DNA of 17,866 nucleotides, taken from NCBI GenBank assembly GCA_046497485.1, contig JAWOFP010000001.1, forward strand, positions 1 through 17,866, written 5' to 3'. This document shows, piece by piece, positions 2,344-4,970 of this stretch. Source of the DNA: Candidatus Nanohaloarchaea archaeon. Lineage in GTDB: Archaea; Nanohalarchaeota; Nanosalinia; Nanosalinales; Nanosalinaceae. Each line of letters starts with the position of its first letter. Within the stretch, counting starts at the first letter, position 1. Under the pieces are notes generated by a model that ran no database searches, was not told the DNA's origin, and saw only the letters and a list, made by a program, of their open reading frames with translations. The position numbers and the translations under genes are program-made.

Positions 2344-3084
2344 TTATTCTACCATTTCTTCAGATAATTCCTCTATATCTGAGACTTCCTCTGTGGACAT
2401 GTTATATCTTCTTTCGGTGTAGCGATTAACTGAGAACTCTTGAGGCACATATTCTACATTTTCTGTGACTAGGCCTGGCGCAACTTCTTCCTCAACTACC
2501 TCTCTTTCATAGTAAGCGATAGATGCTTGGCCTTCTGGGACATAAAAATTATCTAGGCCTTTTCTTCCTGCGGCTTCTGCTTTTTCCAGTATTCCTCCGA
2601 CTCTTCCTATCCGTCCTTCTCTGGTTATTGTGCCGGTTACCGCTGTTTTGTTATCTACCGGGTTATCTTCTATTGCGGCGATTGTTGCAATGGTCATTGC
2701 TGCTCCTGCTGAAGGGCCGCCGACAAAGCTTCCGTCAATTTCAAAGCTATAGGTAATGTCTTTGGAGCTTAAATCTTCCTCAGTAAACTCTTCGGCAACT
2801 GCTCTAGCAGTTCTTGCGGAGAGCTGTGTGTCTGTCTCGATGAAAGGATCTGTGTTCAGTAATAGGCTTCCGTCTCCAGGGGAAATCCTGGCCCTTGCTT
2901 TTCCTAAGGCGCCTTCTCCTTGACTGGAGACTGCTGCGATATAGGTCTCAGCCGTTCTAGTACCTTCAAAAGGTTCTTCCTGGAAATTAGGTGCTTGAAG
3001 GTTAAGTAAGAGTAGAGTGAATAATATTCCGGCTGCAAACGCCAAGGCGACATCAAGCTCAAGGTTTTCGATAGAATCTCTCAT
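2344..3084 (-). CDS. Membrane-anchored Lon-type (S16) protease domain protein, no AAA+ module
   Basis: N-terminal TM helix; GGPSAGAAM (catalytic Ser), TAVTGTI and VGGILEKAEAA (catalytic Lys) Lon_C motifs; only 246 aa. Confidence 0.85.
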   Translation of the reverse strand: MRDSIENLELDVALAFAAGILFTLLLLNLQAPNFQEEPFEGTRTAETYIAAVSSQGEGALGKARARISPGDGSLLLNTDPFIETDTQLSARTARAVAEEFTEEDLSSKDITYSFEIDGSFVGGPSAGAAMTIATIAAIEDNPVDNKTAVTGTITREGRIGRVGGILEKAEAAGRKGLDNFYVPEGQASIAYYEREVVEEEVAPGLVTENVEYVPQEFSVNRYTERRYNMSTEEVSDIEELSEEMVE

Positions 3085-3137: not shown

Positions 3138-3800
3138 ATGGATCTTATTTTTCTTGGGATGAACAAAGCAGGCGAAAAAGTTCTTGAATGGCTGGAACAA
3201 AAAGAAGAAGTCAATATTAAAGCCGTTATTGAGGAAAAAGAAGGCCTTGAAAAAATAAGAGATTTGAGGCCTGAACTAGTCATTTCATCAGGATTCGAAC
3301 ATATCGTTCCTAAGGAAATCATTGATATTCCTGAGAAAGGCATTGTCAACTTACATCCTTCTTATCTTCCTTATAACCGAGGAGCGCATCCATACATCTG
3401 GCCTTTAATCGAAGAAACTCCTGCTGGAGTTTCCGTCCATTTCATGAATGAGAACTTGGATGAAGGCCCTTTAATCGCTAGGAGAGAAGTAGAAATTAGG
3501 TCTGATGACAACGCCAAATCTCTGAGAGATCGGTTAATGAAACATCAAGCAGAGATTTTCAAGGAAAACTGGGAGAAAATACTCGAGGGAAAATCCAGGC
3601 CTCAGGATTTGGAGAAGGGAAATGTCCATTACAAAAGTGATTTGGATCAAATTTCTAACCTGGACTTAGATGAAGAGATGAGCTTAAGAAGGGCCTTAAA
3701 CTTGTTAAGAGGCCTGAGTTACGGTGAGAGGTCTCTGGCGTTTTTTGAGGAAGATAAAACTTATCGAATAAATTTCAGTATTGAGAAGGACTCAAACTAA
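3138..3800 (+). CDS. N10-formyl-THF-dependent formyltransferase, probably an NDP-amino-sugar N-formyltransferase
   Basis: VNLHPSYLPYNRG, GVSVHFM and LDEGPL motifs of the Formyl_trans_N fold; short C-terminal extension rather than the full Fmt C-domain. Confidence 0.85.
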   Translation: MDLIFLGMNKAGEKVLEWLEQKEEVNIKAVIEEKEGLEKIRDLRPELVISSGFEHIVPKEIIDIPEKGIVNLHPSYLPYNRGAHPYIWPLIEETPAGVSVHFMNENLDEGPLIARREVEIRSDDNAKSLRDRLMKHQAEIFKENWEKILEGKSRPQDLEKGNVHYKSDLDQISNLDLDEEMSLRRALNLLRGLSYGERSLAFFEEDKTYRINFSIEKDSN

Positions 3801-3825
3801 AAAACTTGAATGCTAAACAATAGTT

Positions 3826-4566
3826 ATGTCGAAGAAAAGGGTTTCTCTCACTTTAAATCAGACTTTGCTGAAGCGTGTTGATGCGGAAGCAGATCACAGA
3901 TCGTTGAATAGGTCGCAGATGGTCGAAGAAATAATTGAAGACTATATACGTGGACAGACCATCGATACCGCAGTGATTCTATGTGGAGACCCTGACTTAT
4001 CGCCTTTGAAGGAGATTAATGGGAGGCCGGTACTATCTCACATACTTGAAGGATTACAGGACAAAGGCCTTACACGAGCTATAATTTTAGCTGGAGGTAA
4101 CCGCGAAAAGCTTCAGTCTCATTTCGGGGAAAAAGGATTCGGAATTACTCTAGATTATGTCTCAGATGAGGTGGAAGGGCCTGCTGAGGCCTTGAAAAAA
4201 CTAGAGGATAGGATCGGCAAGACTTTCCTAGTACTAAATGGTGATGTGGTGCTGGACTTGGATATTGAGGACATGGTTAGTGTGCATCGACAGGAAGACT
4301 CGGTCGCGACCATGGCGTTGCGGACGGCAGATGATCCTTCTCAGTATGGAGTTGTTAGAATGAAGGGTCGGACAGTCTTAGGGTTCGAGGAGAAGCCTGA
4401 ACCTGGCGAGGAGCCTACCCGGTTGGTCAATGCCGGTGCCTATATCTTTGAGCCTGAAGCGTTTAGTATTTTAGAAGAAGATCTCGACAGCTTTTTCGAA
4501 GAACTCTCAAGTGAGAAGCAGCTTTCAGGATATATTTACGGCGGTAAATGGGATAAAGCCGATTAA
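3826..4566 (+). CDS. RHH (CopG-like) DNA-binding domain fused to degenerate sugar-phosphate nucleotidyltransferase domain
   Basis: Residues 1-42 (KRVSLTL...LLKRVD...NRSQMVEEIIEDYI) match the RHH pattern. The remainder has AVIL, GRPVL, FLVLNGDV, YGVV, FEEKP and VNAGAYIF of NTP_transferases but lacks GxGTR/PK. Confidence 0.85.
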   Translation: MSKKRVSLTLNQTLLKRVDAEADHRSLNRSQMVEEIIEDYIRGQTIDTAVILCGDPDLSPLKEINGRPVLSHILEGLQDKGLTRAIILAGGNREKLQSHFGEKGFGITLDYVSDEVEGPAEALKKLEDRIGKTFLVLNGDVVLDLDIEDMVSVHRQEDSVATMALRTADDPSQYGVVRMKGRTVLGFEEKPEPGEEPTRLVNAGAYIFEPEAFSILEEDLDSFFEELSSEKQLSGYIYGGKWDKAD

Positions 4567-4970
4567 AACCTGTTTACAAGTTCTGCTATATCTTCTTCAA
4601 CTATCGACAGTAGATTGTAAAGCACCGAGACACCCATTCCTCCTAGAGCAAACTTCATGTAAGGTTCGAGGCCGGTCTGAAGAATGTAATGAGTGAATAT
4701 CATTGGCGCCAGTGCTGAAAGATAATGTATAGTTGAAAGTACTAGAGGCGCCTGATTTTCTGAGGCCTCAGTCTTTCTACCGAACAAAGCTAATGCAAGC
4801 ATCCCGAACCCTAGTACTGCCCCAAAACCATATGATAGTGCTAGAGGAAGGTTTGGTGCTCCAAACTCATTGATCAGTAATGCTCCTGAACCCCAGAAAG
4901 CGATTGTGAATCCGTATGCTCTTGATTCTCCTGAGATCATGGAACGCATGTAGTTTTTCTCTTTACCCAT
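4563..4970 (-). CDS. Small integral membrane protein (about 4 TM), unknown function
   Basis: 135-aa ORF with four hydrophobic segments; convergent 4-nt overlap with the neighbouring gene end. Confidence 0.75.
   Translation of the reverse strand: MGKEKNYMRSMISGESRAYGFTIAFWGSGALLINEFGAPNLPLALSYGFGAVLGFGMLALALFGRKTEASENQAPLVLSTIHYLSALAPMIFTHYILQTGLEPYMKFALGGMGVSVLYNLLSIVEEDIAELVNRF

Follow-up and report, generated by a model that had tools for sequence, protein, structure and literature searches.

The gene described here raises the question of whether a protein with the fold of a sugar-1-phosphate nucleotidyltransferase, preceded by a ribbon-helix-helix (RHH) domain, still works as an enzyme or serves as a transcriptional regulator and, in the latter case, which genes it controls and what it senses. 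The gene (3826..4566, + strand) encodes 246 aa in an intact ORF and has orthologs in the phylum. It lies in the 17,866-nt stretch of DNA of a nanohaloarchaeon that was analysed in this study (the window).

The first gene of the window, truncated at position 1, codes for an AbiEii-type nucleotidyltransferase toxin (1-654) and is followed by a PAPS-reductase-family gene (695-1648), a VapB/PIN toxin-antitoxin pair (1676-2282), a gene for a membrane-anchored Lon C-terminal protease domain (2344-3084) and a sugar N-formyltransferase-like gene (3138-3800; best NCBIfam match PRK07579, under cut-off). A TATA-like A/T run (3798..3804, + strand) overlies the formyltransferase stop, approximately 28 nt before the ATG of the fusion gene, and is found at the same position in the orthologs, which suggests that the fusion gene has its own, probably leaderless, promoter. 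The conserved neighbour on the other side encodes a 135-aa membrane protein (4563..4970, - strand) that matches no Pfam or NCBIfam family, and is convergent to the regulator in 24 of the 45 loci tested.

Domain architecture of the fusion protein

The arrangement described in the sequence-only reading, an RHH domain in front of an NTP_transferase fold, was confirmed by Pfam, which placed RHH_1 at residues 5-41 (E 1.1e-4, 22.4 bits versus a cut-off of 20.5) and NTP_transferase at residues 65-221 (E 2.9e-22). The RHH domain, for DNA binding and dimerisation, comprises residues 1-43 (3826..3954, + strand), and a search with residues 1-49 matched the PDB entries of CopG (1b01, E 6e-4) and antitoxin Rv0298. 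In the AlphaFold2 model (mean pLDDT 88.4) helices 12-24 and 29-43 precede the nucleotidyltransferase fold, giving the strand-helix-helix order of RHH proteins, with alternating polar residues (the invariant R5, S7 and T9) in the strand. The predicted recognition strand is K4-R5-V6-S7-L8-T9-L10 (3835..3855, + strand), in which L8 is also invariant.

A dimer model, proposed earlier as a check, predicted a homodimer formed through the RHH domain, with a score of 0.48 (best control 0.00), an interface within residues 1-41, contacts agreeing in at least 64% and pLDDT of at least 83. With the score mark used, 20 of 30 solved pairs and 1 of 23 single chains pass, and the positive outcome here may come from the likeness of this domain to RHH dimers that are already solved.

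The second domain (3964..4563, + strand), the predicted ligand sensor, lacks the C-terminal beta-helix, as the protein terminates four residues past W242. The best Foldseek match of the model was 8x7s (E 2.5e-17, TM 0.73), and the model also resembles the sugar-1-phosphate nucleotidyltransferases GMPPB/VTC1. None of the 25 NCBIfam nucleotidyltransferase families listed (AglF, GlmU, GMPP and RmlA among them) matched over its cut-off, the top score being 95.7 bits versus a cut-off of 292. The Pfam/NCBIfam search gave no TrmB family match, and the NikR model was absent among the listed family matches, the C-terminal domain being NTP_transferase.

Erosion of the active site and retention of the product pocket

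The triphosphate/pyrophosphate loop of the protein is reduced to ILCGDPDLSP (3976..4005, + strand). It had been suggested that an in-frame loss of about a dozen residues had removed both the NTP-binding Arg and the catalytic Lys. The loss and the missing Arg are real; however, alignment to an intact fused ortholog (L078, named Aenigmatarchaeota) sets the deletion at 10 residues, and the Lys position aligns with S59, i.e. it is substituted rather than deleted. Lys occupies this position in 56 of the best 120 of 706 homologs, and Arg in 29.

The residue roles are those described in PMC9168903 for the product-bound structure of VTC1, in which pyrophosphate is held by G9, T12, R13 and K23, while residue 80, G85, N109, Y145, G146, E162, N173 and W217 make contact with GDP-mannose or line it, and D111 and D219 are catalytic. 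VTC1 was mapped onto the fusion protein by eye, through L078, and its Glu195-Lys196 segment was left out of the pocket scoring because the alignment there is ambiguous by one residue. In this mapping all four pyrophosphate-site residues are lost (their equivalents are D55, deleted, deleted and S59), whereas the product-side residues D114, G118, N138, Y174, G175, E189, N202 and W242 are kept. The second acidic ligand (WxD) corresponds to K244, and the helix beyond it is cut off.

The four motifs that had been reported to remain are all present: N138-G139-D140 (4237..4245, + strand) and, within the retained sugar pocket (4345..4443, + strand), Y174-G-V-V, E188-E-K-P191 and N202-A-G-A-Y206. The Asp of the first motif is nevertheless atypical, this residue being His in 91, Asp in 17 and Asn in 12 of the best 120 of 706 homologs. 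In the same set Y174, G175, E189, K190, N202, G204 and Y206 are each kept in at least 110 proteins, residue 114 is acidic in 116 (varying between E and D), and the invariant positions comprise R5, S7, L8, T9, N28, R29, S30, C53 and G54 as well as G118, N138, G175, N202, G204, Y206 and W242. By analogy with GMPPA, this pattern would be that of a product-binding pseudoenzyme, and the fusion protein is very probably devoid of useful enzyme activity.

Conservation of the erosion and the wider RHH-nucleotidyltransferase family

The loop deletion is common to all 120 of the closest homologs (the best 120 of 706 matches) and is therefore neither chance nor an assembly error, which disposes of the concern that it might be unique to this assembly. 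Those of the closest homologs for which a taxon is given are Nanohaloarchaea. Full-length matches (E<1e-60) occur in 53 of 70 Nanohaloarchaeota genomes; if only the 28 genomes with a completeness of 90% or more are considered, 23 have one. Two genomes (G045 and G009) were at first counted as lacking the gene, which is actually cut there by contig ends. The deletion reaches the distant nanohaloarchaeal families f4 and f5. In 14 of 18 close pairs with unsaturated dS, the dN/dS ratio of the nucleotidyltransferase domain was 0.03-0.30. Judged from these substitution rates, the eroded fusion is under purifying selection phylum-wide. Two copies of the fusion gene (L073:3998-4743 and G048:C12:36917-37656) are distributed over two frames, through either an assembly error or a recent break.

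The search for this domain architecture and the alignment of the GxGTR region, both suggested earlier, uncovered a wide DPANN family. A family match (E<=1e-30) was present in 114 of 251 sampled genomes of Aenigmatarchaeota, some of these being stand-alone enzymes, and fusions occur too in the sister phylum of genome G071. Source names among the relatives include Woesearchaeota, Diapherotrites and one Patescibacteria protein, most records having no taxon. Among the best 150 clusters (50% identity) 114 are fusions, and GxG[TS]R is matched by only 7. A quick IQ-TREE tree of the nucleotidyltransferase domain (137 rows, with family f1 thinned to about one row in three; unrooted, deep branches open) united the nanohaloarchaeal proteins in one clade (SH-aLRT 99).

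As far as the alignments reveal, the family spans intact to eroded states. The Arg, the Lys and both Asp are kept in all 16 fusions of clade F and in all 19 stand-alone enzymes, and the catalytic Arg is absent from all 36 proteins of f1 and all 14 of f4/f5. The fully intact and ancestral-type clade F, together with the Lys or Arg often remaining at the Lys position of homologs and the label of nucleotidyltransferase that these proteins bear in database records, could speak for a still-active bifunctional enzyme-regulator (a PutA-like trigger enzyme). Alternatively, the protein could be the product of a decaying pseudogene. Both proposals are very hard to credit: the Arg present in every stand-alone enzyme is missing throughout f1 and f4/f5, the copy studied here has none of the four pyrophosphate-site residues, an intact nucleotidyltransferase paralog exists in the same genome, and dN/dS values well under 1 argue against decay. 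The database label may inflate metabolic reconstructions of DPANN archaea.

The genome studied here also carries, at L326:9554-11902 (G000 contig C8), tandem GlmU-like nucleotidyltransferases with the loops PAAKKKESL (degenerate) and AAGESSR, which may be another active/inactive partner pair.

A candidate operator and the genes that carry it

Repeated heptamers with a 10-bp period were detected upstream of 130 fusion genes, and the candidate operator is the 17-bp GTAWTAC-N3-GTAWTAC. Its exact form is present in 54 of 70 genomes of the phylum (reversed control, 0 of 70). The genome studied here has one perfect and three one-mismatch sites (approximately one expected under a Markov model); these score 21-26 bits with a PWM built from other genomes, the next best score being 9.9. 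Three of them are placed at the starts of genes for a ROK glucokinase, a class I aldolase and the intact nucleotidyltransferase (names taken from best matches, all under family cut-offs). The fourth, which is the only perfect one (L204, G000:C32:18242), lies between an MgtE/CBS transporter gene and the gene of a 161-aa protein of no family.

Target genes were then assessed without regard to the motif, by taking the 30 best loci per search and approximately 120 nt around each start, with up to one mismatch. Of the PGK starts, 22 of 29 carried the motif, compared with none of 29 pyruvate kinase starts (one locus dropped from each for want of an anchor), and it was found at 22 of 30 class I aldolase, 19 of 30 glucokinase and 22 of 30 intact nucleotidyltransferase starts. 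In some genomes sites also occur before FBPase_3, PEPCK, glutamate dehydrogenase and an epimerase. The sites at glutamate dehydrogenase and at the MgtE/no-family gene pair fit a sugar-only regulon poorly. PGK gave no match in our own assembly (G000, 97% complete, 66 contigs), which probably reflects an assembly gap; it is present in 56 of 70 genomes of the phylum.

The sites are located just behind the TATA element, at a distance of most often 14-15 nt, and therefore cover the start region; they often overlap the ATG.

The glycosylation genes of the window had been put forward as the targets, and this part of the proposal did not survive. At up to one mismatch the motif was found at 0 of 29 aglH starts (one locus dropped), 0 of 33 cupin starts, 0 of 4 formyltransferase orthologs and 0 of 4 aglB orthologs. 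Nothing in the window exceeded chance, and the PWM was negative at all seven gene starts tested, so these genes are rejected as direct targets.

Autoregulation was likewise rejected for family f1, in which the motif was found upstream of none of 35 fusion genes and yet is located approximately 18 nt ahead of genes nearby. The operator lies within 120 nt of the start of the 135-aa membrane protein gene in 16 of 24 orthologous loci and, in many relatives, between this start and a divergent gene; it is absent from this position in our own genome.

Beyond the membrane-protein gene, behind a perfect operator, relatives carry a variable gene slot (L001-L030, L054, L062, L066, L073, L220, L234), which is empty in our window. 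Clustering of 35 slot genes gave HAD-like phosphatases (11 and 5), cupin-like genes (8) and a trio of no known kind, and the slot gene of L015 is glucosyl-3-phosphoglycerate synthase-like (E 1e-23, under cut-off). This content hints at compatible-solute or sugar-phosphate turnover.

Motif type follows the regulator clade

GTAWTAC-N3-GTAWTAC precedes the fusion gene itself in 8 of 14 cases in nanohaloarchaeal families f4/f5 and in 13 of 15 cases in clade C of the sister phylum, and the recognition strands of these two groups resemble that of the protein studied here. Upstream of the genes of other clades different motifs were found: a TTCATAC repeat (10 of 11) with the RVTIT strand, TATGTACATA (5 of 5) with the RTSIE strand, and ATCYTAC (8 of 9 and 4 of 6) with two Lys-strand clades. 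Off-diagonal counts of strand by motif were near zero, with the caveats that the motif classes had been drawn by eye on these very sequences and that kinship among the genomes makes the counts non-independent.

The best match of the RVTIT-type RHH domain is E. coli NikR, the operator of which is given in PMC7055735 as GTATGA-N16-TCATAC. Among the 251 genomes of Aenigmatarchaeota the TTCATAC repeat was found in 18, all of them within the 114 with a family match, and two held-out genomes with the repeat carry the RVTIT strand. The reversed-pattern control for this census is uninformative, because a reversed direct repeat largely matches the same sites. Metagenome loci provided 66 distinct upstream regions (from 80), of which, at up to one mismatch, 39 contain the NikR-type pair and none the nanohaloarchaeal motif (controls for the pair: 0.001 in shuffles and 0 of 71 inside genes); the pair had already been noticed in these loci before it was counted.

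In these sequences motif type tracks the regulator clade and the RHH strand, and NikR-like strands go with the half-site published for NikR. The fusion protein thus probably binds GTAWTAC-N3-GTAWTAC. Since the f1 promoters have no site, what ties our own copy to the motif is the strand sequence that it shares, together with the local site present in relatives.

The neighbourhoods of the fusion genes in these groups are also of interest. In the sister phylum the gene is located directly upstream of a pgk-like gene (L071, L074, L076, L080, L081, L083), often then followed by gap-like genes, and in two loci it is divergent from a glutamate dehydrogenase-like gene (all named by eye). In Aenigmatarchaeota the genes divergent from the fusions resemble those of nucleotide-sugar dehydrogenases or GHMP sugar kinases (also named by eye), with the clade motif in the intervening DNA (L088, L089, L099, L107, L109, L111, L112, L118, L135, L143, L145, L150, L151, L153). 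One of these loci, L107, carries two fusion paralogs in tandem.

Sites in genomes without the gene

The expectation that a genome without the gene would have no motif failed for G046. In this closed genome (one contig, 99% complete) the fusion gene is cleanly missing at the syntenic site, yet sites with up to one mismatch are kept at pgk, aldolase, glucokinase and nucleotidyltransferase genes. Perfect sites number 0, versus 2-3 in its three genus relatives. As the gene is retained in these relatives, its loss from G046 may have happened recently. G046 contains 15 RHH_1 matches (3-8 in four other genomes); its syntenic locus L246 (G046:C1:945000-964999) lacks not only the regulator but also the local operator and the slot gene, and a 2-mismatch site lies between AglF-like and AglM-like genes. 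Genome G030 (93% complete) likewise gave no gene match and has 3 perfect sites. Among sister-phylum genomes, 13 of the 15 that have a clade-C gene contain the motif, as do 6 of the 27 that lack one; since the site in most of these 13 is the autoregulatory one, they do not count as independent evidence. Perfect operators, some in tandem or approximately 430 nt apart, were also seen at L330, L331, L336, L347 and L348, whose genomes have no clade-C fusion; at four of these five loci no ORF of at least 95 aa starts within 200 nt.

The sites persisting in G046, along with the fixed TATA distance and the frequent ATG overlap, could mean that the motif is the site of another factor or a core promoter element, the fusion being a non-catalytic partner of the GMPPA or GlgD kind in which the RHH domain only dimerises. 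Several fusion genes of Aenigmatarchaeota are directly upstream of a canonical nucleotidyltransferase gene, and GMPPA is such a partner (PMC11228364). We nevertheless consider this explanation improbable. The type of motif changes with the fusion clade and strand, and follows the NikR half-site where the strand is NikR-like (PMC7055735). Closed genomes having the gene contain only 2-6 sites each at up to one mismatch, too few for a core element. None of the 14 RHH proteins of G046 that were examined (of 15) resembles the RHH domain of the fusion family, the best, a NikR-like protein, scoring 23 bits versus 77 for the real one. The TrmB sensor domain was not found in our own genome, with weak partial matches in three of four others, which weakens the case for another reader of the motif. 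Finally, the fusion protein lacks the beta-helix through which GMPPA and GMPPB assemble (PMC9168903).

A proposed repressor of sugar supply with a dead enzyme as predicted sensor

The idea of a one-component regulator with a pseudo-enzyme as its sensing domain, with which the sequence-only reading had ended, therefore gains from the phylum-wide erosion under purifying selection, the invariance of R5, S7 and T9 in 120 of 120 homologs, the co-variation of operator and strand, and the retention of the product residues, all of them properties of sequences. We propose, with a probability of about 0.7, that the fusion protein represses genes of hexose-phosphate and NDP-sugar supply via the motif, sensing a sugar nucleotide through its dead domain. 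Each RHH dimer would read one 7-bp half-site, and a pair of dimers, spaced by one helical turn, would occupy the transcription start and prevent initiation. The former enzyme domain, which would keep the nucleoside and sugar subsites, would bind the NDP-sugar end product as GMPPA does GDP-mannose; with this ligand bound, repression would become tighter on all routes leading to hexose phosphate and NDP-sugar, i.e. glucose uptake via glucokinase, gluconeogenesis and activation, leaving pyruvate kinase free. Ligand-tightened repression of all supply routes would account for the presence of sites at both glucokinase and gluconeogenic genes and for their absence at pyruvate kinase. As to the details, we lean towards an NDP-sugar (with GDP, UDP or ADP as the base) as the effector, and give slightly better than even odds to its acting as a co-repressor rather than an inducer.

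The protein might instead bind the motif and repress, with a sugar phosphate (e.g. hexose-1-phosphate) as an inducer, or with the former enzyme serving as a ligand-less scaffold for oligomerisation. The sugar-side residues are indeed the best conserved part of the domain, base-side position 114 varies between E and D, clades I and J of Aenigmatarchaeota have lost sugar-pocket residues (clade I still having its upstream motif), and sugar acts to release the known TrmB-type sugar regulators of archaea (PMC10817205). Against this, G118 is invariant and residue 114 almost always acidic, both of which would be needless for a sensor of sugar phosphate. Moreover, glucokinase and gluconeogenic genes have sites in the same repressing position and pyruvate kinase has none, a pattern that suits end-product feedback better than a switch between glycolysis and gluconeogenesis. 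We therefore regard this alternative as unlikely and retain repression tightened by an NDP-sugar as the preferred reading.

In a literature search, from which subscription papers and supplementary annotation tables were out of reach, no description of the fusion, the motif or the regulon was found, and for the central carbon metabolism of nanohaloarchaea or other DPANN it likewise yielded no regulator or regulon; the accessible part of PMC6393860 does not mention the fusion. What is new here is a candidate operator and a family of regulators to go with it: one named protein, its proposed 17-bp site and a short list of targets, open to direct examination with purified protein. Such a regulator would show how host-dependent cells with genomes of ~1 Mb balance glucose use, gluconeogenesis and sugar-nucleotide supply. 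The graded series from an intact enzyme-regulator fusion to a dead sensor constitutes a natural record of a pseudoenzyme becoming a transcription factor. In a broader view, to which we assign a little more than an even chance, fusion of an RHH domain to a sugar nucleotidyltransferase gave rise to a transcription factor family, so far undescribed, in symbionts with small genomes (DPANN archaea and Patescibacteria); the protein studied here would be its founding member, and the enzyme half would repeatedly have been eroded to an NDP-sugar sensor. Paralogs of the protein would have diversified strand and operator for different sugar-nucleotide pathways, giving a readable strand-to-operator code, and in nanohaloarchaea the protein would replace TrmB as the master sugar-phosphate regulator.

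Comparison with known systems

Enzyme-derived one-component regulators, in which a metabolic fold is reused as the sensor, are represented by Mlc and NagC (ROK fold), and PutA is an RHH-enzyme fusion that remains catalytically active. The folds of these proteins differ from the nucleotidyltransferase fold of the fusion protein.

Three other systems also invite comparison. NikR, described as the only metal-regulated RHH family, is likewise an RHH domain fused to a ligand-binding domain that represses through paired half-sites, and the R-x-T-x-T paralog clades of the present family carry its half-site GTATGA/TCATAC upstream (PMC7055735). However, the sensor here is a nucleotidyltransferase fold instead of a nickel domain, the predicted targets are sugar genes, and the half-sites are 3 bp apart, compared with 16 in NikR (PMC7055735). 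GMPPA, an inactive paralog of GDP-mannose pyrophosphorylase that binds GDP-mannose and gives feedback (PMC11228364), shares with the fusion the use, here predicted from the sequence, of a dead sugar-1-phosphate nucleotidyltransferase as a product-sensing feedback device (PMC11228364, PMC9168903). GMPPA inhibits its partner enzyme by beta-helix contact (PMC9168903), whereas the fusion, with a DNA-binding domain and no beta-helix, would exert its effect on transcription. The regulators TrmBL1, Tgr and haloarchaeal TrmB resemble the proposed one in that a single regulator serves the central sugar genes of an archaeon, and for the TrmB type a site downstream of TATA means repression (PMC10817205). 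They differ in combining an HTH with the TrmB sensor domain, in their motif, and in activating gluconeogenic while repressing glycolytic genes (PMC10817205), whereas here all conserved sites, at glucokinase as well as at gluconeogenic genes, are in the repressing position. The fusion protein thus belongs neither to NikR nor to GMPPA nor to TrmB, although it shares a likeness with each of them.
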